Assembly: GCA_945992255.1 (NCBI GenBank)
Contig: CAMFVQ010000058.1
Location: forward strand, 25,292 to 89,291
Length of the DNA stretch: 64,000 bases
Direction: 5' to 3'
Origin: an uncultured Clostridia bacterium
GTDB taxonomy: Bacteria; Bacillota; Clostridia; Christensenellales; UBA3700
Shown: positions 2,436 through 60,300 of the stretch, piece after piece
Layout of the letters: every line of letters starts with the position of its first letter
Numbering within the stretch: position 1 is the first letter of the stretch
Translations under genes and position numbers: made by a program
Notes under the pieces: generated by a model
Databases searched by the model: none
What the model was told of the DNA's origin: nothing
The model's input: only the letters and a program-made list of their open reading frames with translations

Positions 2436-3203
2436 TCAGTTGTTGTAAGGATTGGTGTCTTTGCTTGACAATTCTACTTGGATATCCAGTCCCTTCAACC
2501 ACTCATAAATTATATTCTTTGCAATTTTTTCACTTGTCCAATGTCCAAGTTCAATAAGTTTTATGTTGTTGTCCACCAGTGTCAACAAAAGCGAATGCTT
2601 AACTTCCGCCGTGATGAACACTTGGATTTTATTAGGCAAAATCACGTCTTGCACGAAGTCATCATCTCTTCCGCCTGCACCAGATATGATTGCCACTTTT
2701 TCGACAATCTCATCAAGATTGCCACTTGTTTTGATAGTGTTGTCGCCGGTAAGTTCGCTTACCTTGCTCACCAACTCGCCGAAAGCAATTCCGCCCTCAA
2801 TCTTGCCTGTACGATAGCACATATCCTTGCCATCACGCTCTTTCAGTCCAAGCTCCACTGCCAAACGGCTGTTGATACCACCGCTTGCACTGTCAAGATT
2901 GGTGTGCATGCTATAAATGTTGATGCCGTGCGAGATTGCATAGAGAAGTAGTCTGCCGTTGGTTGTCGAATGAGTGATACTCTTGATAGGAGCAAAGATG
3001 ATAGGATGATGAGAAATTATCAGATTGGCGCCTATCTCGACAGCTTCTTCAAGCACAGCCATAGTGACATCAACCACCACCATAACCTTGTCAATCATAC
3101 ATTCTTTGTCGCCCACCAAAAGACCGCTGTTGTCCCATTCTTCACACAAAGATAGTGGTGCGTTTTGTTCAAGTCTTGATATGATTTTCTCCAACTTTTC
3201 CAT
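2436..3203 (-). CDS. Nif3-like dinuclear metal centre protein
   Basis: N-terminal ...WDNSGLLVGD... and ISHHPIIF motifs. Conserved position next to trmK and rpoD. Confidence 0.85.
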   Translation of the reverse strand: MEKLEKIISRLEQNAPLSLCEEWDNSGLLVGDKECMIDKVMVVVDVTMAVLEEAVEIGANLIISHHPIIFAPIKSITHSTTNGRLLLYAISHGINIYSMHTNLDSASGGINSRLAVELGLKERDGKDMCYRTGKIEGGIAFGELVSKVSELTGDNTIKTSGNLDEIVEKVAIISGAGGRDDDFVQDVILPNKIQVFITAEVKHSLLLTLVDNNIKLIELGHWTSEKIAKNIIYEWLKGLDIQVELSSKDTNPYNN

Positions 3204-3850
3204 TATGCCATCTCCTTTTCACTGTAGAGTAAGTGCAAATATTTTTCTATATCTAGGCTCTTACTATCGCCCATAGCTTTCAAAATCTTTTCACTTTTTT
3301 CGATTTCGGCATCGAGATATGCTCTGTATACTTCATCTTGCAAGCTGTTCTTGCCCAACATAATATCGTGATAGCTAAGCTCTTCTTCGCCCACTTGTGC
3401 CACCAAAATATTGTAGAATTTTCTGCCAGACTTGACCACAAAATCCTTGTCAAGACTGAATCCGTTTTGGGCAACATAGGTTCTTACTTTATCCACATCT
3501 TTGTGTGCTACCAACACCAACTTTTCCACGCCTTGTGGGCGGTTTGCCAAAATATCCAAGATTTCCTTTCCACCCATGCCTGCAATGACAGCTACGTCCA
3601 CTTCAAAGTCTTTGTAGTCATCGAATCCGCCACAATGTTTGAATGAGATATTCTCCAATCCATATTGTTTGGCAAGCTGTTTTGCTTTGTCTAGGCTTGG
3701 AGCGGAAATATCCGATGCCACGACCTGTTCGACACGCTTTTCGATGAGTGCCATACAGCTCACTTTGCCGTGGTCACAGCCAATATCTGCTAGACATTTT
3801 CCTGATATATTGTCCACCACCGCCCTCAGTCGGTTGTCGAGTTTTATCAT
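3203..3850 (-). CDS. trmK: tRNA (adenine22-N1)-methyltransferase
   Basis: MIKLDNRL...LADIGCDHGK N-terminus typical of TrmK/YqfN. Synteny with rpoD and dnaG. Confidence 0.8.
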   Translation of the reverse strand: MIKLDNRLRAVVDNISGKCLADIGCDHGKVSCMALIEKRVEQVVASDISAPSLDKAKQLAKQYGLENISFKHCGGFDDYKDFEVDVAVIAGMGGKEILDILANRPQGVEKLVLVAHKDVDKVRTYVAQNGFSLDKDFVVKSGRKFYNILVAQVGEEELSYHDIMLGKNSLQDEVYRAYLDAEIEKSEKILKAMGDSKSLDIEKYLHLLYSEKEMA

Positions 3851-16756: not shown

Positions 16757-17122
16757 TTAAATGATAACTGTGTCAATGGTTTTGTTGGTTGGTTCTTGCT
16801 CGTCGTAGTTGCTTGCGTCTGCCGGCTGTTTGAGGTCTGCCGCAGGGTCGTAGCTAGGAATTATGGGTTCCTCGGCTACCGGCTCGTCGTCCTCTACAAA
16901 GTCTGCAAGCGGCGCCCACTTACGTTCAAACTCGGCTTTCTCAGCCGCTACGAGTTTGTCTGCCAAAGGCTTTACGTCCTGCTCGGTAAAGGTGCCTACA
17001 GATAGGTAGGGCGCCAGCGTTGCGCGGATCTCAGCCTCGGCGGTTTCTACTCTGCTCTCCAGTCGTTCCTGATCGGCTTTGTAGGCGGCTGTTAGCTTGT
17101 CTGTGTTGATGCGTTTTGCCAT
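16757..17122 (-). CDS. Phage hypothetical protein (acidic)
   Basis: ORF with an AAGGAG SD. No recognisable motif. Confidence 0.5.
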   Translation of the reverse strand: MAKRINTDKLTAAYKADQERLESRVETAEAEIRATLAPYLSVGTFTEQDVKPLADKLVAAEKAEFERKWAPLADFVEDDEPVAEEPIIPSYDPAADLKQPADASNYDEQEPTNKTIDTVII

Positions 17123-17147
17123 AGTCTCGTCTCCTTGTCTTTATTTT

Positions 17148-17840
17148 CTAAAACGGCAGTATTTGTATACCGGTATAGAATTCTATGTAGTACGCTACTA
17201 TCTTTAAGAGCATATAGGCAAGTAGCAAGCCTAAGCCTGTCCAAATAAAGACCTGCGCTATTTTGGTAAACTCTCTTATGAGTTCCACCGTAGCGTTTAT
17301 GCCTTTAAGCAGGTACAGTATAAGGGCTATAACCAGCCAAGGTAAGGCCGCTACAGTTATGGTAAGTACCATAAAAAACTTGCTGTAGCTCCTGGTCTCT
17401 GCGCCCTCTGTGCGTTGTTTCGGTTTTCCCGTTATGTTACCAAAGTCAAACTCCAGTATAGGCCTAAAGCGTTCATAGAACGCCTCGTTATCTTCGTTGC
17501 CGGCTCTACGTTCCTTGGAACGGGCCTCGGCGCTGTCTGCTTTCATTTCGTGCGTAAGAGCCTTGCCGGCAATCTCTGCGTATTCGTCGGCGTTGTCGTT
17601 GGCAGCCTTTACAGTAGCCGCCGCTTTTACCATTCCCTTGGCTGCCTCGTCTATAGTCATGCCTCCGGTCTTAACCTTGTCTACTATAGCCTCTCCAGCC
17701 ACTTTGGCTATGTCCTCTACTTGTGGCGTCTCGTCCGGTTTTTGCGTATCCGCTACCACCAAAGTGCCTGTAGGTTTTTTGCTATCCACGGCTTGCCTTT
17801 TAGCTAGCTCTTGGTTTACTATTTCGTCTGCGCTTGCCAT
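17148..17840 (-). CDS. Phage membrane protein (soluble N-terminal part, C-terminal TM segments)
   Basis: ORF with a GAGGAGG SD. Hydrophobic C-terminal third. Confidence 0.5.
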   Translation of the reverse strand: MASADEIVNQELAKRQAVDSKKPTGTLVVADTQKPDETPQVEDIAKVAGEAIVDKVKTGGMTIDEAAKGMVKAAATVKAANDNADEYAEIAGKALTHEMKADSAEARSKERRAGNEDNEAFYERFRPILEFDFGNITGKPKQRTEGAETRSYSKFFMVLTITVAALPWLVIALILYLLKGINATVELIREFTKIAQVFIWTGLGLLLAYMLLKIVAYYIEFYTGIQILPF

Positions 17841-17877
17841 AATGTCCTCCTCTTGCCCTCTATTTATTTAAGGGCTT

Positions 17878-18102
17878 TTACTCAAGATTAGCCCGTACCT
17901 CTACGAACCACTCCGGGCGTAAACTTGTAGCGTTTCCGTCGTTAAGTTCGTTGATCTCCTCCAAAGTTTTACCCTCAAGGGCATTACCCCAGCTCTCTAA
18001 CGCAAAATCTACGTCTTGCTGCGTAAGAATACCGGCCTCTTTATCTTGGTTAAGGGTTACAAGTAGAGCCTGTGTACTGAATACCTTTTTTGTTTTTTCC
18101 AT
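17878..18102 (-). CDS. Phage hypothetical protein
   Basis: ORF with a GAGGAGG SD. Overlaps the 3' end of the RT ORF. Confidence 0.45.
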   Translation of the reverse strand: MEKTKKVFSTQALLVTLNQDKEAGILTQQDVDFALESWGNALEGKTLEEINELNDGNATSLRPEWFVEVRANLE

Positions 18103-19150
18103 TGCGTTTGTCCTCCTCGCTTACTATTTTTGTAAGTTTGCCCTTTTTAACTTTAGGCTTTATGTACTTTAGGTAATAGTTTTTACCGTTTGCTATATGG
18201 TGCAGCCAGCCCATCCGGGAGAGTGCCGACCGAGCTTGTCTTACGGTAGGCTGTCCTCGGCGTTCTATGCGCCCTATTACGCGCGTCATATCGTATAATA
18301 TATAGTTGCGTAGCTCCGTATGGTCTCTATAAAACTTAAAGCCTAAGTAGTCTATGGGCCTACTGTCTATAGGGTAAACTTGCCAGTTCCTTTTAAGCGT
18401 AAGCCCGTAGCCGTTCTGGTTAAAGTATTCCTCTACAGCTTTGCGCACCTTGTGTAGTTTCCTTTTGTTAGTATCGAGCATAAGCATATCGTCTACGTTG
18501 CGTACGTAGTAATTTACCTTTAGCTCTTGTTTTATATAGTGATCGAACTCCTCAAGGTAAAAATTTCCTAGCCATTGTGAGGTGTAGTAGCCTATAGGTA
18601 GACCGCTCTCGCCTCCGTGGTCTATTATTTGGTCTAGGAGAGCTATAACTCTCTTGTCCTTTATCTTTTTACGGAGTAACCACTTTAGCTTGTCCTGGTT
18701 TATGCTTTGGTAAAATTTCGATATATCGCATTGGAATACGTGGCGTATCGCCCTGTCGTTCCTTAGTGCTTTCTCTATGTAGTTCTTACCGTATATACCG
18801 CCTCTGCCGGGTACGTTTCCTACGGAGTACTCGTACATACCTTTAGTAAAAATCGCTTGCAGCGGTAACATAACGCACCAGTGTATTATTTGGTCTGGGT
18901 AGTAGCAAGGTACGGAGATCTGCCGTACTTTTTGCTTTGGGCCCTCCCGGCGCTCCATGTACCTGTCGTGCCCTAGCTCTACGTGCTCCGCTAAAAGCAT
19001 AGCCTGTATGTCTATGGCGTACTTATCCATATTGTTGAGTATTCGTTTTACCGACCTGTACTCTCGCTTTTTCTCTGCGGAGCGCCGTATAGCCTCTTTT
19101 ATATTTTCAATGTCGCAGACTTTCTCATAAATATAGCCCTGTCGTTTCAT
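18050..19150 (-). CDS. DGR reverse transcriptase
   Basis: RT motifs including LPIGYYTSQWLGNFYL (the DGR-type IGxxxSQ) and VRNVDDMLML (catalytic DD). Located immediately 3' of a TR that pairs with a VR. Confidence 0.9.
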   Translation of the reverse strand: MKRQGYIYEKVCDIENIKEAIRRSAEKKREYRSVKRILNNMDKYAIDIQAMLLAEHVELGHDRYMERREGPKQKVRQISVPCYYPDQIIHWCVMLPLQAIFTKGMYEYSVGNVPGRGGIYGKNYIEKALRNDRAIRHVFQCDISKFYQSINQDKLKWLLRKKIKDKRVIALLDQIIDHGGESGLPIGYYTSQWLGNFYLEEFDHYIKQELKVNYYVRNVDDMLMLDTNKRKLHKVRKAVEEYFNQNGYGLTLKRNWQVYPIDSRPIDYLGFKFYRDHTELRNYILYDMTRVIGRIERRGQPTVRQARSALSRMGWLHHIANGKNYYLKYIKPKVKKGKLTKIVSEEDKRNGKNKKGIQYTGSTCNP

Positions 19151-19276
19151 TGTTACTTACTTCTTTTACTCTCAAAGCCTTTCGAGGTATCCTACTAGGC
19201 TCTGCCTCTATCGATATTTTTTGCCAAGGGGCAAGGATAAGACAAGCCAAATTATTTTTGTACTTAGTTTTTGTAA

Positions 19277-19387
19277 AAGATTGCGACCGCCGATGTTGGA
19301 GTTCGTGTTCGTGGCGGAATTGTTCGCGTTGAAATACCAAGGCCCAGCGTTGAGCGTGTTATTCCAGTTGCCACCTACGTTGACCAT
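19277..19387 (-). repeat. DGR template repeat (TR)
   Basis: 111 nt aligns without gaps to 19484-19594. All 13 mismatches fall at TR adenines on the minus strand. TR is rich in AAC codons. Confidence 0.9.
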
Positions 19388-19440
19388 ACGGCACGGCTTG
19401 CCTTACCCTATATTTGTTGTTGCTGTTTTACTTACCTAGG

Positions 19441-19462
19441 GCTAGGGGGTAATCCCCCTAGC
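19441..19462 (-). promoter_or_regulatory. GC hairpin just 3' of the VR (DGR target-recognition-type hairpin)
   Basis: GCTAGGGGG-TAAT-CCCCCTAGC on the plus strand: 9 bp stem, 4 nt loop. It lies 7 nt after the target gene's stop codon. Confidence 0.7.
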
Positions 19463-19468
19463 TACCCC

Positions 19469-20902
19469 CTATAGAGGTCTCCTAAGAAGGCGACCGCCGA
19501 CGTTGGAGTACGTGTTCGTGGCGGAATTGTTCGCGTAGAAATACCAAGGCCCAGCGTAGAGCGAGCTATTCCAGCTGCCACCCACGAAGACCACTCTATA
19601 CGTGCTACTTGAGTAATAGCCGTAGTCGCAGTAGTATGTAGTGTCTGAGCCACCCAGGTCTGTGGGAACTTGTACGAACGGGTTAGTCGCGTCATAGCCA
19701 AGTTTTTTAACCCTACTGTTGCCTCCAGTTACGCCGTTATAGCTTACTGCGCTATAGTCAGCAGGTAAAGAACCACTTACGTACTTTGTAGGGTCCTTAC
19801 AAACGTAAGGCTTAAGGCTGTTAACCGTTATACCGTCCATCCATTGATATACGTTGCCGTACCAGTTCTCCACGCCTCTGTATTTCATAGCGTGTTTGCC
19901 GTCCGTATTGCTTATCTCGCTACCGCTGGCGGTAAGGACGCCGTCAGTTCTGCCGGAGGCAATAGCGGCGCTGTTGCCGTTTGCGTAGCCGTACATAATG
20001 CTCTGCGCGTTCGTGGTTGCGAATTCTACCTTAAAGAGGTCCTGCAGCATTACGTGCGCCCAGATATCATACTGCTGGTAGCCTGTTCCGTTCGCCTTGC
20101 AGGCGTTACGCATATTGTTTATATTGATATTTACTAAAGGACTTGCTCCGCTTACGCTCTTAGCCAAGCTGGAGGAGCCGGAGGCGGTATACTTACCTAT
20201 GTCTACGTAGTCAAGCTCTACGCCGTTGCCGTCTGTAAAAATAGGGTTGAGTAGCCACGTATCGTCCGGCTTTTGAACGCATATCTCGGTCTTTTTGTAG
20301 CCGTTCTCGTCAAAGGTATAACGCGTATAGTGTTTAGGTACGCGCATAAACACGTTGCCCTTGTCGTCGGTTACCTCCGTTATATCGCTCCAAGGTCTGC
20401 AGTTGTCAAAGTCGCTGGTAATAGATCCGTCAGCGTTAAGCGTGTAGCCAAGCCCCACCGCGCTGTCGCCCCTTGTAAGTGTAGGATTGCTTGCGCCCTC
20501 TCCGGAAACGCTGAATATTTGAGCCTCGCCAAAGTATACGGCTACCGTGTTTGACGTGTTTTCTGGTACGCCCTCCCCGGCCGCTACTACTCTTACGTTG
20601 TGCGTGGCGTTGTCGTTTGGATTTACGTCGGTTAGATCTATCACAAAAGGCACCGAGGCGCCCTCTGCGGTATAGTCTACCGTTTTTACTAGTACGTCGT
20701 CTATGTAAACCTGTACGCCTGTTACGCCGTCTATTAAGCCGTATACCTCTATGCTTATAGAACTTGTCTTTTCTACTCTCGGCCTAGAGGTATATACGAC
20801 CTCGTTACTAAAATTACTGTCCTCGTATCCGTCTGCTGTTACTTTTAGCTTTAGCGTATACTGTCCGTATGGTAGCTTAAGCTCCTCTAAGTTTTTCTCC
20901 AT
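19469..20902 (-). CDS. Tail-fibre/receptor-binding protein with a C-terminal FGE-sulfatase/C-type-lectin-like domain (DGR target)
   Basis: Start at MEKNLEEL behind AGGAGG. GVENWYGNVYQWMDG and GGSW motifs. The VR lies at the extreme C-terminus. Confidence 0.8.
   Translation of the reverse strand: MEKNLEELKLPYGQYTLKLKVTADGYEDSNFSNEVVYTSRPRVEKTSSISIEVYGLIDGVTGVQVYIDDVLVKTVDYTAEGASVPFVIDLTDVNPNDNATHNVRVVAAGEGVPENTSNTVAVYFGEAQIFSVSGEGASNPTLTRGDSAVGLGYTLNADGSITSDFDNCRPWSDITEVTDDKGNVFMRVPKHYTRYTFDENGYKKTEICVQKPDDTWLLNPIFTDGNGVELDYVDIGKYTASGSSSLAKSVSGASPLVNININNMRNACKANGTGYQQYDIWAHVMLQDLFKVEFATTNAQSIMYGYANGNSAAIASGRTDGVLTASGSEISNTDGKHAMKYRGVENWYGNVYQWMDGITVNSLKPYVCKDPTKYVSGSLPADYSAVSYNGVTGGNSRVKKLGYDATNPFVQVPTDLGGSDTTYYCDYGYYSSSTYRVVFVGGSWNSSLYAGPWYFYANNSATNTYSNVGGRLLRRPL
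19484..19594 (-). repeat. DGR variable repeat (VR), encoding the C-terminus of the tail-fibre protein
   Basis: Encodes ...VVFVGGSWNSSLYAGPWYFYANNSATNTYSNVGGRLL. The TR counterpart reads MVNVGGNWNNTLNAGPWYFNANNSATNTNSNIGGRNL. Confidence 0.9.
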
Positions 20903-20911
20903 GTGCACCTC

Positions 20912-22183
20912 CTATTCTAAAGTTACTTTAAATTGTAAGCTGTCGTTACCGTTGTCGCCACCACCGTCTTTGCGGTATTTTACGTAGACAAAGTGCTCTT
21001 GACCGTCGTTTGGTATCGTGTAAGAAACGATAGGCTGTGGGCTGGTAGAGGATTTGCCCTTAAAGTTAGCAGCGTAAAGCGTCGAGCTGTCCTCTGTGTT
21101 AGAGCGAGCAAGCTCAGTATCGAGCTTGGATAATATACCAAAATCGTAGCTGCTCTCGCCGCTATTTATGCACTCGAACTTCGCTGTCGCTTCGCTACTA
21201 CTACTGAGTACCACTTTGCAAAGCGCGTAGGAGCTCGGTTTTCCCTTATTCGTGCTTTCGTAGTAGCCATTTGCGTTAAGCTCAAATCCGTAAGTTACAC
21301 CCTCTATAGCCTCAACGTAGCAGTTCTTGTAATCTATTACCGAGAATACCTCAACCTCGTTTGCGTAAAGGTGGAGCTGTGTAGCGTATCTCACGCTCTG
21401 CATATCCAGCGTACGACCATCGTTAGCGAGTACGAGCTTAGGCGTATGCAGCTTTAAGGTATCCCAGGCTACAGCCTCTACTGATATATCACCTTGTACG
21501 TTAGCAACTGTTATAGTCCCTGCGTACTCGTCGTATATATACTCTACGGGCTCTCCGTCGGCTGTTACGCTAATTGCCTCTGGCAAGTACTTACCCTCGT
21601 TAGGAACTAGCTTAGCGCTGTATGTTTGTCCGTCTAAGATTTTTACGGCGCTGTTGCTGTTTGTTAGGTTGGTAAGCTCGTTAGTAATAGCAAGCATTTT
21701 AGCTATAAAAGCGGTACTGCCTGGCGCGTCGTTAAAGTTGTTGCCTTTGGCTGCTACCATAATGCTATGCGTTCCTACGTCAAGCCCAGTAAGGCTATAA
21801 CTCGTAGAGGTTATGGTAGCTATCAAGTTACCGTTATCGTAAATTTTATAGCCGGTTACAAAGTTGCCGTTGGAACTTGGGTTTGTGATCGTAAAGCTCG
21901 TACCGTTTCTAGTGGTACTTACCCTATTAAGCGTAGGCATAGCTGTACCGCCGATATAGTTACCTGTTACGCCACCTATGTTTACGCCATTTTTAATATT
22001 ATCCGCTATAAGCGTTACCGGCTTTTCTACGGTTACCTGTACGAGTACGCTACCGTCCGTGGGCGTAATAACCTGATTTCCGGAACCCATAGAGAGAGGT
22101 ACCGTCTTACGTTCCTCCGGTTTAGCAGGAGCCAACCCTCCGCCAGATCCTACGAGAGTTAGAGGGTTTTTTATTCTAGCCAT
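20912..22183 (-). CDS. Phage tail-fibre/baseplate-associated protein (beta-rich, Ig-like repeats)
   Basis: ORF with an AGGAGG SD. The call rests on its position in the tail-fibre block. Confidence 0.45.
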   Translation of the reverse strand: MARIKNPLTLVGSGGGLAPAKPEERKTVPLSMGSGNQVITPTDGSVLVQVTVEKPVTLIADNIKNGVNIGGVTGNYIGGTAMPTLNRVSTTRNGTSFTITNPSSNGNFVTGYKIYDNGNLIATITSTSYSLTGLDVGTHSIMVAAKGNNFNDAPGSTAFIAKMLAITNELTNLTNSNSAVKILDGQTYSAKLVPNEGKYLPEAISVTADGEPVEYIYDEYAGTITVANVQGDISVEAVAWDTLKLHTPKLVLANDGRTLDMQSVRYATQLHLYANEVEVFSVIDYKNCYVEAIEGVTYGFELNANGYYESTNKGKPSSYALCKVVLSSSSEATAKFECINSGESSYDFGILSKLDTELARSNTEDSSTLYAANFKGKSSTSPQPIVSYTIPNDGQEHFVYVKYRKDGGGDNGNDSLQFKVTLE

Positions 22184-22184
22184 A

Positions 22185-22568
22185 CTAACCTCCTATTTCT
22201 ATACGGAGCGTTACGCTCTCGGTTGGCTGCGCTACGCTGAATACGGTAATTGCTTGTCCGTCTACTGCGCCTATTGTAAAACCGTACTTAGCAAAAGCTA
22301 GGGCGTTATCGTTAATAAGTTCTACCAGCGTGTCCGCCTCTATAGTCGTAGCGGCTGTTACGGTTGTAGAGTAGGTAAACGGCGCCTTATCAGCTAAGGC
22401 GCTCCAAGCGTTTACCGTAAAGGTCTCTGCAGTAGGTTTTTTCCGTACAGTGCCTGCCCACGTGTCTATCGCCTTAAAGTTATCATTATCAGCGCTAAAC
22501 TGAGTAGGCACGTCCGTTTCAGCTTGCGGCAAGTCTACCGTCAGCCCTAAGTTACTTGTCAATGCCAT
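22185..22568 (-). CDS. Phage structural hypothetical protein
   Basis: ORF with a GAGGAGG SD, in the tail-fibre block. Confidence 0.45.
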   Translation of the reverse strand: MALTSNLGLTVDLPQAETDVPTQFSADNDNFKAIDTWAGTVRKKPTAETFTVNAWSALADKAPFTYSTTVTAATTIEADTLVELINDNALAFAKYGFTIGAVDGQAITVFSVAQPTESVTLRIEIGG

Positions 22569-22590
22569 ACCACACCTCCTCTACTTGCCT

Positions 22591-23067
22591 TTACTCGGTT
22601 GTCGCGGTATTCTTGAGGCTTATAGTCATATCGCCGGGGCGTATAATGGCTATGGTGCTTACAAGGTTGTTGCCAGGGTGCAAAGGCGTAATAAGTGCCT
22701 CAAATGCTAAGAGGTCGTTACCGTCTGACGAGCCAAAAAGGCATACATGGGTACACTCGCCCCAGTCTTGAACTATTTTCTCGGTATTGTCGTAAGTTTC
22801 CGGGAACGTGATTTGCAAAGAGTTTTTTACGCTGCCGCCGTCTGCCTCGTCAGTTACGGATCCAAAGACCGTGGAGCCGTTACTATTGCTGTAGCTTTTG
22901 GTATTGATAGCTACGCGCTTGTAAGAGCTGTTATTCGGCTCGGTTACGCCGGTGCCTGCAATAGTAGGGGCTGTTTTTGAGAACCCTACGTAAAGAGGGT
23001 TGCCGGTATACGTAGCTGCGCCTGTAAACCAGCTAAGTATACGCTTTGCGCCTAAGTTAGTAATCAT
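22591..23067 (-). CDS. Phage structural hypothetical protein (tail-collar-like N-terminus?)
   Basis: ORF with an AAGGAG SD. The MITNLGAKRIL...YVGFS pattern is reminiscent of tail-collar fibre N-termini; the similarity is weak. Confidence 0.4.
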   Translation of the reverse strand: MITNLGAKRILSWFTGAATYTGNPLYVGFSKTAPTIAGTGVTEPNNSSYKRVAINTKSYSNSNGSTVFGSVTDEADGGSVKNSLQITFPETYDNTEKIVQDWGECTHVCLFGSSDGNDLLAFEALITPLHPGNNLVSTIAIIRPGDMTISLKNTATTE

Positions 23068-28221: not shown

Positions 28222-29814
28222 CTATCTTACGCCAGAGCCTAGTAGCTGGTTGATAAGGTCTATACTTATCTGGTCGTAAATATAGCCTGCTATACGCTCA
28301 GCGTTACCGTCGTTTATTTCGGTACCGTCGCCTTGCGCGTCAACCTTAACGTTAACGTCTACCTCTCGCTTAGTATTTCCGTAGTAGGTTTGCTCGGCGC
28401 TATAGTCCAAGCTATAACCCATGTCGTTTAGTTTGCTTTCCGTCTCCCCCATAGAGGCTAATAGCTCGTTAGACGTGTCCGTGGCGGTTCGTGCCTCGTC
28501 TGTAAACATTCGTATAAGCGATATAAGCAGCATAATAGCCGCGCTTATTGCCATGATAATACCAAGCCAAGGCGTTGAGACCATAGTAAGCGTTGCTGTA
28601 GCCGCACTCTGTGCTAAGGTTGCGGCCCTGAGTGTCTTAAATACAGTTACTCCCGTTTTTACCAGCGCTATTATCTTAGGTAGTACTATTATCAGCATGA
28701 GTATTACTAAAAGTATTTTTTGCCCACCAGAGCCAAGGTTACCTAGCCAGCCGGCGACCGTAGTTATAAGCGGTATAACCGTATTTTGTAAAAATTCCGA
28801 TAGTGCTTGTATTGCCGGCATAAGAGCTACGAGAACCTCAGCTGCCGCGGCTTGGTACTGGTACTTTAAGCTGTCCCACATATCCGCGACCTCGCCGGCT
28901 TTCGCTGCCTGCTCGCTAGTGATTATGCCATTAGCTATAAGCGCGTTATCCAGTTCGGCTATTGCCTCCGCAGACGTTCCGGCTACGGTTGCTACGTTAA
29001 GACCCTCGTCGCCTAGTAGCCCTTGCGCTATAATAGCTCTGTCGGTCTCGTCGTTTACGTTGCGGAGCGCCTCGTATATTAAGTCGTAGATCTCCGCGTT
29101 GGTTTTATGCTCTAGGTCCTCCTGCGCTATACCTAATTGCTCTAGGTAACTAAGGTATCGAGCTCCGCGCCCTGCGGCTATGGAGGACTGCATAGAACCT
29201 ATTTTTACGAGTGCAGCGGTATAGGTTTCGCTGTTTGCTGTGAGCTTTGCAAATCTGTTGGTTTGTATCTGCAAAGCCTCGGCAGTGGTACCATACTTTT
29301 TAGCGTTGTCGTCCAGCTCGTCGCCTACCTTAACCGCCGAGGTTACTACTGCAGCGAGAGCGCCTACCAAGGCTAGCGCCGCTTTTGATAGTTTGCCGGT
29401 TGCTTTTTCCGCTTTGTCGAGCCCGTTAATAAGGTTACTAAACTTTGCCTCGCGGATCTCGGCGTTCTGTTTTCTCATGGCGGCGGTAAGGTCGTTTACT
29501 TTACCCTCCGCCTGGGTTATTGATCTTTGTATTTTTACAAGCTCGCGCTCGTAGTCCTTTTGGGATATATTGCCGGCTTCGAACTCAGCCGTTAGCTCTC
29601 CCTGCTTTTGTTTAAGCAGGTTTAGTTTTTGAGTATTAAGCTGTAAAGACGACGAGAGCGCGTTATATTTCTGCCTTACGGTATCTACATTGCCTGGGTT
29701 AAGCTTAAGGCTTTTATCCAGCTTACGCACCTCTCCGTCGGCAGCCCTTATATCCGCGCCCACCTGTTTTATTTTTTTGTCTAGTATGTCAAAACTGCGT
29801 CCTATTTCGGCCAT
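28222..29814 (-). CDS. Tail tape measure protein
   Basis: Long coiled-coil N-terminal part, Ala/Gly-rich hydrophobic central segments, and a position after the chaperone pair. Confidence 0.8.
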   Translation of the reverse strand: MAEIGRSFDILDKKIKQVGADIRAADGEVRKLDKSLKLNPGNVDTVRQKYNALSSSLQLNTQKLNLLKQKQGELTAEFEAGNISQKDYERELVKIQRSITQAEGKVNDLTAAMRKQNAEIREAKFSNLINGLDKAEKATGKLSKAALALVGALAAVVTSAVKVGDELDDNAKKYGTTAEALQIQTNRFAKLTANSETYTAALVKIGSMQSSIAAGRGARYLSYLEQLGIAQEDLEHKTNAEIYDLIYEALRNVNDETDRAIIAQGLLGDEGLNVATVAGTSAEAIAELDNALIANGIITSEQAAKAGEVADMWDSLKYQYQAAAAEVLVALMPAIQALSEFLQNTVIPLITTVAGWLGNLGSGGQKILLVILMLIIVLPKIIALVKTGVTVFKTLRAATLAQSAATATLTMVSTPWLGIIMAISAAIMLLISLIRMFTDEARTATDTSNELLASMGETESKLNDMGYSLDYSAEQTYYGNTKREVDVNVKVDAQGDGTEINDGNAERIAGYIYDQISIDLINQLLGSGVR

Positions 29815-29833
29815 ATCGTACTCCTTTATTTTG

Positions 29834-29904
29834 TGCGTGGGGCAGGGGTCGAACCTGCAACCGGCGGAGGTGCAGCCGTGCTTTACCGCTTAAGCTACCC
29901 ACGC
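29834..29904 (-). tRNA. tRNA-like element with a non-canonical anticodon arm (possible pseudo-tRNA)
   Basis: Perfect 7 bp acceptor stem (GCGTGGG/CCCACGC), D arm GCTT/AAGC, and T arm GCAGG-TTCGACC-CCTGC. The anticodon stem is CGGCT/CGCCG with a U-C mismatch, the loop GCACCTC lacks U33, and the variable loop is only 3 nt. Confidence 0.45.
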
Positions 29905-53625: not shown

Positions 53626-55152
53626 ATGATTATAGTTGCTTATTGTCGTTACTCAAGCGAGAACCAAAGGGACGGCTATTCTATCGAGGCGCAAACTAGA
53701 GCTATTACCGAGTGGGCTAAGTCTGCAGGCCATACTATAAAGCGGTTTTACGTGGACGAGGCTCGTAGCGCTACCAATGACGACCGCGCCGAGTTTCAGC
53801 GTATGGTAGCCGACGCTGCGTCCGGAACATTTAAAGCCGTAGTAGTTCATAAGCTAGACCGCTTTGCGCGTGATCGCTACGATTCCGCCGTCTACAAGCA
53901 TAAGCTAAAGCAGTTTGGCGTTAGGGTTATATCCGTTCTGGAGCCCCTAGACGACTCTCCGGAGGCTGTCATGATGGAGGCCGTGCTAGAGGGTATGGCC
54001 GAGTACTTTAGTAAGAACCTCGCCCGTGAGGTCTCCAAGGGCAAAAAAGAAACCGCCCTTAAAGCTCAGCATAACGGCGGTTCTATCCCCTACGGGTTTA
54101 CTATAGACAAAGACCGCCATTATATCCCTATCGAGGAGGAGGCGGCGGTAGTTCGTGAAATATTCAAAAGAGTTGACGGCGGCAGTACGCTTGTAGACGT
54201 CACTAGGTGGGCGGTAGCGCAGGGCTACCGTACTAGGCGGAATACTGCTTTTAACATTTCGTTTATTAGGTCTATGCTTAGGTCGCCTATCTATATAGGA
54301 ACCTATAGCTACGGTAGGCGTAGTACCTCTGGCAGAGAACCTATAGTATTTGAGAATTGCATACCGGCTATAGTAGAACCTGCGCTGTTCTACCGTGTAA
54401 ACGATATGCTGAACAAAAGGGCCAGAGGTCCAAAGCAGCGCCAAAAAGAGGAGGACTACCTACTTACCGGCTACCTTTACTGCGGTATCTGCGGAGCCCA
54501 CCTATTTGGCTTTAAGTCCAAGCAAAAGTATAAAGATAAAGAGTACGTAGCTTACTGGTACCGCTGCTCTCATAGGTCGTCACACCGTATGGAGCCAGGA
54601 ACCGAGCGCTGTAAGCTTAAGGGCGTACACAAAGAGGAAATAGAAACCTTTGTTATTGAGAGTATCAAGGCTAAGCTCTTTGGCGAGGATTCTATAAACT
54701 GGATTGTGGCGGAGCTTGGCAAGCGTATTAAAGCAAGGGCTGCCGCCCCTACCGCTGCGCAGCTGTCCGCCTACCAGGAGGAGCTTAAAAAGCTTAGCGG
54801 TCAAAGAGAGCGCTTGCTAGACCTATACCTTTCCGGGGGTCTAGACAAAGAGCTATACGCAAAAAAGAGCGACGAGCTCTATAGCCGTATAGAGTTCTTA
54901 ACTCAAGAGGTAGCCAAGCTCTCCGTACCGTCTATAGAGATCAGCGCCGAGCGTCTCCGCTCTGCCCTTAAGGTTTTTAACGATAGCGCTAATGCCGATA
55001 GCGTAGAGTATAAAAAAAGGCTACTGTCTACTTTTGTAGACTCCGTAGTCTTATCAAACGATGAGGTTATTATAAACTATAAAGTTACTATACCTGGCTG
55101 GAGTTCGTCTAGCGATAGTTTCGTGCGTAAAGCAAATCACGCTTTGACATGA
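53626..55152 (+). CDS. Large serine recombinase (integrase)
   Basis: The N-terminal resolvase domain YCRYSSENQRDGYSIEAQ carries the catalytic Ser. It is followed by a recombinase domain, a Cys-rich zinc ribbon (CGICG...CSH) and a coiled coil. The stop codon is 5 nt from the att core. Confidence 0.9.
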   Translation: MIIVAYCRYSSENQRDGYSIEAQTRAITEWAKSAGHTIKRFYVDEARSATNDDRAEFQRMVADAASGTFKAVVVHKLDRFARDRYDSAVYKHKLKQFGVRVISVLEPLDDSPEAVMMEAVLEGMAEYFSKNLAREVSKGKKETALKAQHNGGSIPYGFTIDKDRHYIPIEEEAAVVREIFKRVDGGSTLVDVTRWAVAQGYRTRRNTAFNISFIRSMLRSPIYIGTYSYGRRSTSGREPIVFENCIPAIVEPALFYRVNDMLNKRARGPKQRQKEEDYLLTGYLYCGICGAHLFGFKSKQKYKDKEYVAYWYRCSHRSSHRMEPGTERCKLKGVHKEEIETFVIESIKAKLFGEDSINWIVAELGKRIKARAAAPTAAQLSAYQEELKKLSGQRERLLDLYLSGGLDKELYAKKSDELYSRIEFLTQEVAKLSVPSIEISAERLRSALKVFNDSANADSVEYKKRLLSTFVDSVVLSNDEVIINYKVTIPGWSSSSDSFVRKANHALT

Positions 55153-56828: not shown

Positions 56829-56904
56829 GGAAGCTTAGCTCAGTTGGGAGAGCATCTGCCTTACAAGCAGAGGGTCATAGGTTCGAGCCCTATAGTTTCC
56901 ACCA
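56829..56904 (+). tRNA. tRNA-Val (anticodon UAC)
   Basis: Folds as a cloverleaf by hand. Anticodon loop CTTACAA. CCA is encoded. Confidence 0.9.
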
Positions 56905-56970
56905 TTGACACAATGTCAACAACCTTGATGTTGTGTCAATATTTTTAAGAAAACATATAATAATGTGTAT

Positions 56971-57046
<76 letters not shown>

Positions 57047-57050
57047 ATAT

Positions 57051-57125
57051 GGCACCATAGCCAAGCGGTAAGGCAAAGCTCTGCAAAAGCTTCACTCCCC
57101 AGTTCAAATCTGGGTGGTGCCTCCA
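57051..57125 (+). tRNA. tRNA-Cys (anticodon GCA)
   Basis: Folds as a cloverleaf. Anticodon arm AAGCT-CTGCAAA-AGCTT. CCA is encoded. Confidence 0.9.
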
Positions 57126-57135
57126 ATAAAAACAG

Positions 57136-57161
57136 CTCTTGCAACAGCAAGAGTTTTTTTT
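57136..57161 (+). terminator. Rho-independent terminator between tRNA-Cys and tRNA-Leu
   Basis: Stem CTCTTGC / GCAAGAG with loop AACA, followed by T8. Confidence 0.6.
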
Positions 57162-57165
57162 ATAC

Positions 57166-57252
57166 GCCGATGTGGTGGAATAGGCAGACACAAGGGACTT
57201 AAAATCCCTCGGAGGCAACTCCGTACCGGTTCAAGTCCGGTCACCGGCACCA
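57166..57252 (+). tRNA. tRNA-Leu (anticodon UAA), long variable arm
   Basis: Anticodon arm AGGGA-CTTAAAA-TCCCT and variable arm CGGAGGCAACTCCG. One A-C mismatch in the acceptor stem. CCA is encoded. Confidence 0.85.
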
Positions 57253-57329: not shown

Positions 57330-60300
57330 TTATCCGCAATGCTTTAGAAGTTCTTTTTGTTCGCTCCTAGTCAGTCCTAAGGTATGGACATATTGGTTGA
57401 CTTTGTCCATATCGGTAGAATACCCTAAGTATGCAAGCATCAAGTATTTTTGGTTGGCAGTCAAACGCTGGCTTTCCAACATTTGGACAATCTTTTTCTT
57501 TTTGCTTCCTGGTATTACTTGTCCGTTGCGGTCGGTGTCGGCTTTGATATTCTTTGCTAAGCCGACAATCGTTGCCATACTTACAATATCAATACCGCTA
57601 ACAAACAACATGGTCTTAGACTTCTCTTCTGCTATACTGTTCACAATTGTATCCTCAAAGAAGTAGTCGTACACAAACTTTATCATAGCTTGCTTTTCGG
57701 TGTCGTTGGCTTTTGCATAGTTCTTGCTTTTGATAAGCTCTTCCACTTTTTTGTTGGCTTGTTCATATTGTTTTTTTGCACTTTTTAATTCTGTTTTGGT
57801 GAGTGTATAGCTTTCCTTTTCGTATACGAATGTTTGCTTCAGTGATTTTGGAAAGAATGTTGTTTCACCGCTCACCTTGACCAACCTTGCAAGTTCCTTG
57901 TTTAGTTCACTTGAAGTGTCTCCAACCTTGTCACTTAATGCCACAGCTGTGATTGTGTTTATGCGGTCAGCATCTTCTTTTTTCATAGCTCTTGCCAGGT
58001 CTTTCGCTAGTGGCATATTATAAAACTTACTATCCCACTTGTAGACCGCCTCATCATCAATAACATTAGCAGCACCATAGAACAATCTATACATATTCTT
58101 GGTAGGTATACCGCAAAGTGTACCCATCGAGAAAATGAGTTTCTTTGTTGAGTTGGCAAGTTTTTTGTTGTCACCGCTTCCGATAGCCTTTCCAAAGCCT
58201 TGCACTGCAGACAAGCTGTCGTTTAGTGTGCCTAGTGTGAACTCTTCTATTGCATACCCCTCAGTGAACAAGTTGTAGATTTCTTTGATTATAGGTATTC
58301 CGGCAAGCCAACTTGCACCAAACTCTGTCAATATTGCCTCGCCAAAACTTTCATCGTCATCATCTAAATTGTACAACTTCGAGAAAAGTACTGCGAGAAT
58401 ACTTGTATACATTGCAATTGCACTCATTGTTGCAGCGGACTTTGCAAGTTGTTTCGCATTCTTTTTTAGCAAGTTTTCAAGCTCCGTGATTTCCGCTTGG
58501 TTGTTAGACTTCTTAGCTTGTGCAAGTCGTTCTTTGAGCGCTATTTTTTCACCGACTGAATCAATTACTCTGCTTATGTTCTTCATTGCATCACTGCTGA
58601 ACATAGTAAAAGTTCTAGCAAGAATATTATCACTTCGCATCATCGCACTTTTTTCGGTAACCATTGTATTTTGCTGTGTCTCTAGTATTACTTTTTCTAG
58701 CATTTCACCAGCTTTGATTTTGCACTCTTCGCTGTTGATATCTATTCCTAAAGTATCAGCAACCTCAACGCAACACGCTTGGAACACACGACTAACAACA
58801 AAGCGGTCTGCCATTCCGATTGGCTTCATCATCTTTTCTTGCAATTTTCCTAATTTGTCTTCCTTGAGCGATAGGGACAACACTGCTGTGTTCTCATAGT
58901 TTCTTACTTGTGCAAGCGGACAGTATTTATCTATTTCGATTTTTTTATACGGCATAAACATTGCTTTGAGCAGTGACTTGGTGGACAATATATGCCAACT
59001 TGCCATATATGAAGATAGCTGGGTGAACAATACTTTAACATTGAGGGCAAGCAATGCAACCGCAGTGTTTCCCCTTATTTTTTCAAAGAACATATCAAAG
59101 CCACTTCTCTTGGCACGAACACCCACAGCACGTTGCACCATATCATTTAGATATTGTTGACCTTTTTTCCATTCTAGCAAGTCGCCCAAACGCTTTGCCG
59201 AATTCTTGTTTTCTATTCCATCAACTACCGCCGACAAGTCCATATTATACAATTTCTTAAAGTTGTCAATAGGAATTTGCAAATGTGCATAGGTAGTGAC
59301 TTCTTTAATGTGCTTAAGTGCTACATTTTGCAACGGCTTGATTTCGAGCATATGTGCATTCTTGACAGTGTTCTTATTGAATGATGCATTGTCAAGATTG
59401 TCAAATGTTTCGTATGTAATATCCCCCACTGTCATTGCTTTTACGCCATATCTTTTGATTGGTATATAATATGTATTCTTAACATTTGAGCCACCAAAAC
59501 GAATTATATCCGTTCTTCTCTTTTCTTCTCGACATTGTTTGTTGAAGATATCTTCTATAATAGTGACATAGGCAAGGTCAGTTTCGTTGAGTTGGCTCTT
59601 GAGTTGTGCGAGATGATGCTTTGCTACACTTGTCAACTCTTCTTCCACTATCTCGCTTGTTGCAACACCCTTGACTCTAACTTCGTTACCCTCGGTGTCA
59701 GTATATACAAAGCCGTTATACAACAAACCGCTCAATGCATCTTCTCGTTGCATTGTCATATACAATGTAAGTGCGACTTGCAGAGGTATCTCTTGTCCAT
59801 TGTATGTGATTGTGCGTTTATCATACTCATAACCTTTATGTTCGGCAAGGAACTTATCCAGTGGCAACTGTATTTCCATTTGTCTGCGTTCTTTGTTCAT
59901 CACGCCCTCACGGAATTGAGAAAACATACTTGTCCAAAAGCCTTTTTTGTTGTAGCCATCGTGATATCTCATAACCGACATTGGGTCAATGACGTATTCC
60001 AATGCACTTCTTGCTTTATCAAGTAGCTTGCCAAAAAACTTTCTTTCTGCTTGAGGTGTCGTGCGATTCGTTCTATCGATTGCCTCATACTTAACTGCTT
60101 GCTCTGTTGCATTTGCCCATTTACCATTTTGGTATACTTTTTTGTATGTATTGGCAATGTGATATATCTTTGCCATTACTTCATCGAGCATTTTTATTGA
60201 TTGCGATGATATAGTCTTAGTGTCTGCTGTTATCTCGGCAAGGTAAGATATCTTCTCTTTCAACTCTTCCACCAAAACAACTTCACCATATCCCAAATCA

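Follow-up and report, generated by a model that had tools for sequence, protein, structure and literature searches.

Can a diversity-generating retroelement (DGR) home without the accessory protein Avd, and which of its remaining parts would then carry out the work? This question is raised by positions 17,878 to 20,902 of a 64,000-nt stretch of contig CAMFVQ010000058.1 from an uncultured Clostridia bacterium (assembly GCA_945992255.1; the whole 64-kb stretch is referred to as the window), where a sequence-only reading had recognized a complete DGR diversifying the C-terminus of a prophage tail-fibre protein. According to our analysis, the locus is very probably an accessory-less DGR with the order target gene with variable repeat (VR), template repeat (TR) and reverse transcriptase (RT), described as ‘Architecture A1’, which resides in a temperate siphovirus-like prophage and homes without Avd.

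The repeat pair and its reverse transcriptase

The core of the element consists of the following parts:

19277–19387, minus strand: TR, with 31 adenines, 12 of 37 codons AAY (in the VR frame) and no stop codon reachable by A substitution; conserved among relatives
19484–19594, minus strand: VR, the final 111 nt of TR homology, ending 12 nt before the target stop codon; diversified core about 19499–19588 (residues 441–470)
18050–19150, minus strand: DGR reverse transcriptase of 366 aa, with LPIGYYTSQ motif, NVDD box, Pfam RVT_1, a match to PHROG 1423 ‘reverse transcriptase’ (phrog_1423) at 2e-92 and a basic C-terminal tail (pI 10.3)
19469–20902, minus strand: DGR target of 477 aa, with N-terminal Ig-like beta-sandwich region(s) and a predicted C-terminal C-type-lectin/formylglycine-generating enzyme (FGE)-like domain bearing the VR; last gene of the tail module

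On the minus strand, TR and VR align without gaps over 111 bases at an offset of 207 nt and with 13 mismatches, reproducing both the coordinates and the count given earlier. All 13 mismatches lie at TR adenines (seven A>T, five A>G and one A>C), for which the hypergeometric p is 6.9e-9 with 31 A among the 111 bases of TR. Realignment hence left the differences 100% adenine-specific, and every codon example of the sequence-only reading (AAC>TTC, AAC>AGC twice, AAC>TAC three times, ACG>TCG, ATC>GTC and AAT>CTT) is correct in the frame of the target open reading frame (ORF). The edges of the homology are sharp, with an extension of 2–5 nt at either side bringing in non-A mismatches at once, and the repeat core occurs in exactly two copies within the window. 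TR itself is non-coding and adjacent to the RT gene, the order being target/VR, 96 nt, TR, 126 nt and RT.

As a record of mutagenic retrohoming, however, this adenine signature has to be narrowed. While all 13 differences are at A, four of them (19387 ATG>GTG, 19376 GTA>GTG and 19282/19281 AAT>CTT) are identical in all six independent VR types examined and are therefore fixed TR/VR differences, either at the boundary or of the type seen at the initiation of mutagenic homing (IMH) site, rather than traces of recent random mutagenesis. Consistently, V439 and L474, the residues at fixed differences, are invariant among 16 close target proteins. The fixed boundary differences narrow the actively diversified tract to about 19499–19588, which comprises 27–28 mutable adenines and 16 variable codons (11 AAY, three ACG, TAT and ATC), and TR could thereby encode about 9e15 protein variants with zero reachable stop codons. 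Within this tract, TR A 19376, which corresponds to VR 19583 (minus strand) in a synonymous GTA codon, is represented by G in six of six independent relative VRs as well as in the window.

The RT carries the LPIGYYTSQ motif and the VDD box reported before, the latter in the form NVDD, and its best solved-structure relative is 8ub7_A (E 6.6e-23, residues 2–301 against 3–293), a chain that shares 100% sequence identity with brt from Bordetella phage BPP-1, while group II RTs come next at E 1e-9 to 1e-11. Across 32 aligned members of the RT family (43–77% identity), LPIG[YF]YTSQW is nearly invariant and the catalytic box is mostly YVDD, with the NVDD of the window RT common to 7 of the 32. The sequence-only reading had named clustering with retron, group II intron or Abi RTs as the outcome that would speak against a DGR. 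Such enzymes do leave a trace, as the RT yields sub-threshold matches to group II, Drt3a and retron models and many of its GenBank relatives are annotated as ‘retron-type’ or just ‘reverse transcriptase’, and a retron, group II intron or Abi/DRT RT located beside a chance or duplicated repeat would account for both. Curated non-DGR NCBIfam RT models, however, scored 20–84 bits against cut-offs of 200–600 (group II RT/maturase 84 with a cut-off of 300, Drt3a 73 with 200, retron 57 with 235 and AbiA 20 with 250). With Brt as nearest structural relative, the DGR-specific SQ motif present and the adenine specificity (p=7e-9) replicated in more than 50 related loci, the tests run refute this explanation, to which we assign practically no probability.

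Diversification in related phages and the diversified protein

Further insights were obtained from related phage genomes, on which the population-variation check proposed along with the sequence-only reading was made, and where variation was found to be concentrated at TR-adenine codons. As an exact-sequence look-up of contigs encoding the window RT and target gave no record, the comparison drew on close cluster members. The 90%-identity cluster of the target comprises 27 variants, 15 of which were aligned with the window protein (16 sequences, 94–97% identical). Mean column entropy amounts to 0.77 in the VR and 0.07 outside, and the hypervariable columns are exactly those with an A in the TR codon. 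The residues follow the codon type, with 4–8 different residues at AAY codons, T/A/S at ACG, Y/C/F at TAT and I/V at ATC. On the DNA level, TR is conserved among nine loci and each VR shows 13–23 differences, nearly all of them at A, an exception being one C>T change common to four of these loci. Moreover, sublineages differ by non-A alleles of TR (GGC/GGT, AACACG/AATGCG, ATC/ATT, GGT/GGC and TCC/GAC), and the same allele is present in the cognate VR. This mirroring indicates concerted evolution, as predicted by repeated copying from TR to VR. At the level of the lineage, diversification and TR-to-VR transfer are thus shown.

A deviating case is provided by two 96-kb pig-gut contigs (L003 and L004; TR about 3260–3370, VR about 3053–3163), in which TR reads AATTCC and VR reads AACGAC, resulting in three non-A mismatches; at all other positions, their VR agrees with that of loci L001 and L005. 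Either a change in TR after the last homing event or a chimeric assembly could explain this constellation. A pattern search with the VR flanks gave 0 matches in IMG/VR and one in JGI metagenomes.

The continuing activity of this particular copy is a secondary uncertainty. In the window, only nine of the 27 mutable adenines differ, compared to 14–19 in close relatives (18–23 in total minus the four fixed), and the YxDD box of the RT contains Asn in place of Tyr. Both features would suit a frozen relic, i.e., a real DGR in which homing was lost, be it by the NVDD box or in a cryptic prophage, and whose 13 differences stem from past activity. Such a relic appears quite improbable to us, since the RT ORF is intact, the prophage contains a full gene set and the TR/VR pair features zero non-A mismatches, whereas a decaying pair would gain random differences. 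The recurrence of NVDD within the RT family argues in the same direction, as do the clearly varying relatives, whose RTs, judged by cluster membership, belong to the same ≥90%-identity cluster as the window RT. Furthermore, the private TR allele of the window (AATTCC, GGC) is also present in the window VR, implying that homing took place after this allele had arisen.

Regarding the diversified protein, the mechanical ORF list placed the start of the target at GTG 20908 and its stop at 19469. ATG 20902 is more likely, because AGGAGG is located 6 nt upstream and homologues begin with MEKNL or MKKNL, which supports the coordinates 19469–20902 of the sequence-only reading. The protein matches phrog_5302 ‘tail protein’ at 6.8e-53; its designation as a tail protein is hence borne out by this match and by gene position, whereas ‘tail-fibre’ is a reasonable, but putative label. 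Similarly, the FGE-sulfatase/C-type-lectin-like domain proposed earlier holds as a predicted fold and fails as a Pfam family, as Pfam and NCBIfam gave zero matches for the target, FGE-sulfatase included; a PDB sequence search with the target returned noise only. A model obtained with AlphaFold from 63 homologues (pLDDT 74, pTM 0.77) predicts a beta-sandwich with Ig-like modules for residues ~1–125. In a Foldseek search of this model against the PDB, the top three matches were chains of TaqVP (5vf4), the DGR variable protein of Thermus aquaticus, at E 5e-11; after these came the FGE-like PvdO, Mtd variants, a formylglycine-generating enzyme and TvpA from Treponema. As DGR variable proteins and FGE-like folds thus rank at the top, the model supports a C-type-lectin/FGE-like fold for the domain that carries the VR. 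In the predicted structure the protein resembles TaqVP, TvpA (2y3c) and Mtd (1yu0-4) in its C-type-lectin (CLec)/FGE-like fold with variable residues at the C-terminal end. It differs from these proteins by an identity of only 10–16%, by its N-terminal Ig-like domains and by being a phage tail-module protein, not a cellular lipoprotein or surface protein. Assignment to the tentaclin family was considered and rejected due to the opposite domain order, with an N-terminal CLec domain.

Two observations concern the modular make-up of such tail genes. In a metagenomic relative of 730 aa (P0003), a single ORF combines the N-terminal part of the 423-aa tail protein encoded upstream (20912–22183 in the window) with the C-terminal region of the target, which suggests that the last two tail genes were fused or exchanged domains. 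In addition, a small ORF near a related RT (IMG/VR loci L019–L098) matches Pfam Mtd_N, the N-terminal domain of the major tropism determinant, at E 2e-14 and links some members of the lineage to BPP-1-like tail-fibre modules.

By analogy to BPP-1, the diversification of this protein could allow tropism switching via the re-targeting of receptors. Its function was assigned from gene order and from the generic PHROG label ‘tail protein’, though, and N-terminal Ig-like domains are typically found in accessory adhesion modules; moreover, non-fibre topologies have been described for DGR targets of gut phages (PMC10743442). A decorative or adhesin-like virion protein, binding e.g., mucin, other bacteria or host cells and leaving host range unchanged, would be in line with these points. 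We nevertheless consider this improbable, as the gene is the terminal one of the tail module, following Dit, hub-like proteins and a Gp80 fibre-like protein, as a VR in a C-terminal CLec domain is the arrangement of Mtd, and as some relatives, such as P0003, carry the C-terminal region joined to the N-terminus of the tail protein encoded upstream.

The TR-spacer RNA and the question of Avd

The DGR had been called complete, which holds true for an accessory-less Architecture A, although Avd is found nowhere in the prophage: no ORF of at least 50 aa matches PF05635 (Avd). Likewise, there is no Avd among 70 small ORFs located within 2.5 kb of 32 related RTs, where holins, tail chaperones and repressors are encoded instead. 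More distant relatives (RT 38–50% identical) feature the same layout and A-only mismatches, and the neighbours called near their RTs do not include an Avd family. In most of 64 IMG/VR loci, the gap between VR and TR spans about 90–150 nt and the gap between TR and RT about 110–165 nt; with a VR-to-TR gap of about 100 nt, there is no room for an avd gene. The small proteins beside the window RT are acidic (pI 4.2–5.5), while Avd proteins have a mean pI of 9.5 (PMC5758913).

The RNA and DNA elements surrounding TR, together with a small ORF at the end of the RT gene, are listed below:

19395–19409, minus strand: 5' strand of the duplex P1 (AGGGTAAGGCAAGCC), beginning 22 nt upstream of TR; RNAduplex −25.5 kcal/mol against −9.5 kcal/mol for shuffles
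19249–19276, minus strand: A/T-rich unstructured linker from TR to P1, the presumed cDNA priming region by analogy to BPP-1 (bioRxiv 10.1101/2023.10.23.563531)
19234–19248, minus strand: 3' strand of P1 (GGCTTGTCTTATCCT), just 5' of RT-18; absent from the Rfam model
19160–19233, minus strand: RT-18 RNA (Rfam RF03021), 58.2 bits against a gathering threshold of 41.3, E 1.4e-9, full model 1–84, 10 nt upstream of the RT ATG
19484–19498, minus strand: IMH-like 3' end of VR, GC-rich GGCGGTCGC followed by CTTCTT; IMH by analogy to BPP-1 (PMC3240598)
19277–19291, minus strand: IMH*-like counterpart in TR, GGCGGTCGC-AATCTT; CTT/AAT is a fixed difference throughout the relatives, with an invariant Leu474
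19441–19462, minus strand: GC-rich hairpin/cruciform GCTAGGGGG-ATTA-CCCCCTAGC, with a 9-bp stem and a 4-nt loop, 7 nt past the target stop; centroid fold
17878–18102, minus strand: acidic 74-aa ORF (pI 4.4), overlapping the RT 3' end by 53 nt

The spacer between TR and RT contains an RNA of the RT-18 family, composed of a stem-loop (TGCC-CCTT-GGCA), an A-run, a second helix with a conserved UAGUAGG...CUCGAAA core and an A/G-rich tail with the ribosome-binding region of the RT. RT-18 is located directly upstream of the RT in 39 of 39 related phage or prophage loci scanned (39/40 overall, the archaeal locus L012, from a metagenome-assembled genome (MAG), being negative) and also upstream of the RT of the cultured Lactobacillus phage LBR48 (RT 41% identical). 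Weinberg et al. (2017) described the motifs RT-1 to RT-19 near RT genes, of which only RT-10 was tied to a DGR (that of BPP-1), a link for the others being speculated and the function of RT-18 left open (PMC5737381); in the literature searched, no connection between RT-18 and DGRs was found. RT-18 is the TR-to-RT spacer RNA of a DGR lineage. While the window sequence agrees with the family (RF03021) in its full-model match next to an RT gene, it is extended on the 5' side by a duplex that brackets TR and lies outside the Rfam model.

This duplex, P1, consists of a 15-bp pairing of AGGGTAAGGCAAGCC with GGCTTGTCTTATCCT. In the lineage, the 15–16 nt on the 5' side of RT-18 pair with a stretch beginning about 20 nt upstream of TR. 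Among related loci, P1 is far stabler than with shuffled partners in 33 of 35 cases (mean −20.4 versus −10.2 kcal/mol). In a fixed-register alignment of 32 loci, 92.4% of the cells are paired, in comparison to 65.5% for shuffles and 31–48% for a slid partner, and the covariation score of the same alignment amounts to 0.71 versus 0.21. Within P1, 90% of the cells are paired, and changes on both sides were observed for 12 of its 15 pairs and three of four pairs of the adjacent stem-loop (15/19 in total), and columns 51–54 of the A-run following the stem-loop are invariant or nearly so. On its own, the minimum free energy (MFE) of the single TR-spacer sequence is not significant (z=−1.4); the RNA structure is hence supported by covariation, not by energy.

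In 207 Avd-containing DGRs, a ‘cPRT Stop’ composed of a duplex (average 13 bp), a stem-loop and unpaired adenosines has been described, along with an Avd-binding stem-loop (about 9 bp plus tetraloop) just after TR (Handa et al., bioRxiv 10.1101/2023.10.23.563531). In the lineage studied here, the linker that follows TR has a median length of 27 nt, an A/T content of 73% and a median MFE of −0.6 kcal/mol (33 loci), and an Avd-binding-type stem of at least 9 bp was found in 0 of the 33 linkers. The architecture of duplex, stem-loop and A-run is thus kept without Avd, and by analogy it could serve the priming and termination of cDNA synthesis.

At the target site, distant relatives share GGCGG[TG]CGC-CTT in VR against -AAT or -ATT in TR. 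A G-run hairpin with a stem of at least 7 bp and, in most cases, a loop of 4 nt is located between VR and TR in 47 of 53 related loci, in comparison to 4.8% of control segments, and its stem sequences differ while pairing is kept. In BPP-1, recognition of the target requires a hairpin/cruciform (PMC3240598), and by analogy the IMH-like block and the hairpin may represent the target-site elements of the present DGR.

Based on these elements, and for several steps by analogy to BPP-1, homing could proceed as follows. An RNA reaching from about 19410 to 19150 would be made, which comparative data support. A scan of the minus strand near TR revealed no sigma-70 promoter, and terminator-like matches were at the level of shuffles; co-transcription with the late tail operon is therefore probable. 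As in BPP-1, the 15-bp duplex (19395–19409/19234–19248) would close a loop containing TR and the A/T-rich linker, and the small stem-loop, the A-run and the remaining RT-18 directly after it would correspond to the ‘cPRT Stop’ module plus an RT-binding RNA. The RT might then bind this scaffold, prime cDNA synthesis in cis from the linker, copy TR with misincorporation opposite adenines only, and halt at the duplex. Guided by GGCGGTCGC-CTTCTT and the GC hairpin past the stop codon, the cDNA would replace VR, again following the BPP-1 scheme. Up to 16 codons could thereby be substituted, their residues lying on the ligand-binding face of the C-type-lectin fold that forms the C-terminus of a distal tail protein, which comparative data also support, and in analogy to BPP-1 the phage would re-target its receptors.

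Several points weigh against this interpretation. The main uncertainty is that a helper non-homologous to Avd, e.g., the 74-aa ORF at the RT end or a host protein, could take part, and the absence of Avd was deduced from profile searches for a poorly conserved protein. The priming site, the priming in cis and the termination at P1 are transferred from BPP-1, and the 5' strand of P1 was found by a duplex search, which favours complementarity, though the shuffle and slide controls argue against this as the source of the signal. Compared to BPP-1, the IMH-like GC block is shorter (9 nt instead of 14) and the ATTA loop is outside the GRNA consensus. Apart from this, the box of the window RT is NVDD and not the family-typical YVDD, notwithstanding the N in 7 of 32 relatives, and the G fixed opposite TR A 19376 is not predicted by random A-mutagenesis with selection at the protein level. 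Finally, the evidence for activity derives from related metagenomic genomes, not from the sample of this prophage.

With neither Avd nor an Avd-binding stem-loop, the RT with its basic C-terminal tail and the RNA, possibly together with a host factor, must suffice. Residues 302–366 of the RT (18050–18245, minus strand) form a lysine-rich extension past the Brt-aligned region, with 16 K+R against 3 D+E and a pI of 10.3, and this extension could replace the basic Avd in nucleic-acid binding. Since BPP-1 Brt is inactive without Avd according to the literature, an accessory protein unrelated to Avd might still be needed, be it the product of the 74-aa ORF, a different phage protein or a nucleic-acid chaperone of the host. 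At the RT end, an overlapping or subsequent small ORF is present not only in the window, but also in two relatives, where it is conserved with 86% (L018) and 46% (L013) identity. It is, however, not recognisable in L014, the Butyrivibrio phage Arawn and LBR48, its product is acidic, unlike the basic Avd (PMC5758913), and the linker has no stem-loop of the type that binds Avd in Avd-containing DGRs. Overall, the requirement for such a protein appears possible, but rather unlikely. As an Avd analogue, the 74-aa ORF was rejected, being acidic and conserved in near relatives only; as a DGR helper specific to the lineage, it is a weak candidate. Two further small ORFs, a basic one of 71 aa (19125–19340) and one of 59 aa in the TR frame, were rejected as genes, as they overlap TR and RT-18 and have no called counterpart at this place in divergent loci.

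Prophage setting, known relatives and implications

The element resides in a temperate siphovirus-like prophage from a gut bacterium, an uncultured member of the Clostridia; the extent and right end of the prophage were placed as follows:

15700–55200, no strand: prophage of about 39.5 kb with approximate ends, based on a GC content of 46–50% against 34–42% in the flanks, Pfam annotation and relatives of about 39 kb
53626–55152, plus strand: large serine recombinase at the right prophage end

The term ‘prophage’ used in the sequence-only reading is well founded, considering the step in GC content, a full set of phage genes, host flanks and relative contigs of about 39 kb from pig-gut metagenomes. 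The gene set includes small and large terminase, portal, prohead protease, capsid, tape measure, Dit and tail proteins including the Gp80 fibre-like protein, as well as DNA polymerase A, a VapE-like primase-helicase, an SNF2 helicase, a methylase and Cro/CI-type repressors. The DGR target closes the tail module and the RT is next. Host genes encoding TyrRS, a class IV aminotransferase and a GGGtGRT protein as well as a tRNA cluster flank the prophage, and the TyrRS is 80–82% identical to that of Clostridia and Christensenellales MAGs. A Megablast search of 17000–23000 against GenBank phages gave zero matches.

Some additional observations were made in and around the prophage. The serine recombinase adjoins a host Exo_endo_phos membrane protein and the tRNA Val-Gly-Cys-Leu cluster (56829–57252, plus strand). 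In free-phage contigs, it comes immediately after the DGR block on the downstream side, so that attP would be situated between the two. A tRNA-Gly with the unusual anticodon ACC (29833–29904, minus strand; ARAGORN; Rfam tRNA 44.6 bits) is found within the prophage between the tape-measure gene (28222–29814) and upstream ORFs of the tail-chaperone region. Just past the tRNA cluster, a 2186-aa ORF (57330–63890, minus strand) is located in AT-rich DNA (34–39% GC).

In comparison to the prototype BPP-1 (mtd-avd-TR-brt), the element shares the adenine-specific transfer from TR to VR, a VR at the C-terminus of a tail protein with predicted C-type-lectin fold, and a Brt-homologous RT with IGxxxSQ motif (E 6.6e-23). 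It further shares the GC-rich VR 3' end followed by a GC hairpin of about 8–9 bp with a 4-nt loop, and the duplex of sequences flanking TR with subsequent stem-loop and adenosines (cPRT Stop). Unlike BPP-1, it lacks both the avd gene and the Avd-binding stem-loop, its spacer RNA is RT-18, whereas BPP-1 was placed in RT-10 (PMC5737381), and it differs in the 9-nt IMH-like block, the loop (ATTA versus GRNA) and the box (NVDD versus YMDD). Besides, the window RT is 38 aa longer, with its basic tail, and the host belongs to the Gram-positive-type gut Clostridia.

Accessory genes (avd or else HRDC, MSL or CH1) occur in most DGRs, but DGRs without them are a known class. Wu, Zimmerly et al. (2018) assigned 75 of 372 curated DGRs to an accessory-less architecture, with 29% of the curated DGRs being without accessory genes, and already proposed Avd-independent homing (PMC5758913). 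The present element corresponds to their Architecture A1 in its TR-RT core, the target directly upstream and the lack of an accessory gene. Of the avd-less Lineage 3, 3A was described as Bacteroides-restricted (PMC5758913), whereas the element studied here occurs in Clostridia phages, a comparison made by architecture.

Among cultured phages, the RTs of Lactobacillus phage LBR48 and of the Butyrivibrio phages Arawn and Idris are 38–41% identical, their records stating only ‘putative reverse transcriptase’. Arawn features the same layout, with a tail gene, a spacer of about 375 nt and the RT, and a 109-nt TR/VR pair with nine of nine mismatches at A; in contrast to the window, its spacer matches RT-4, not RT-18, and does so only below threshold. 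More remote are two Methanomassiliicoccales MAG contigs (L011 and L012) with RTs 34–36% identical, the only relatives retrieved by a scan of genome contigs with the RT, in which TR is located upstream and an A-mutated VR about 2.5 kb downstream of the RT. Here, 11 of 11 and 22 of 27 TR/VR mismatches are at A, and RT-18 gave no match in either locus. DGRs may therefore have been exchanged between phages of gut Clostridia and archaeal viruses.

As a DGR of a gut prophage, the element is ordinary, with thousands of such elements catalogued and at least 572 relatives of its RT family in IMG/VR, and it will not surprise the specialist. Its value is that of a clean example, with many known members, of the Avd-less class, for which the mechanism has been in question since 2018. 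The comparative data give a function to the orphan Rfam motif RT-18, namely that of a DGR spacer RNA, and they reveal that the cPRT Stop architecture was retained without Avd while the Avd-binding stem-loop is gone. Tentatively, and at odds somewhat short of even, the RT-18-associated DGRs of Clostridia and Lactobacillus phages could be naturally minimal, comprising an RT and a self-scaffolding RNA, i.e., a cis-primed, adenine-mutagenic RT without phage-encoded helper. The cultured relatives LBR48 and Arawn offer a direct route to the question of Avd-independence. Should RT and RNA indeed suffice, they would represent an irreducible DGR core and a smaller set of parts, or chassis, for DGR-based directed evolution and programmable in vivo mutagenesis.

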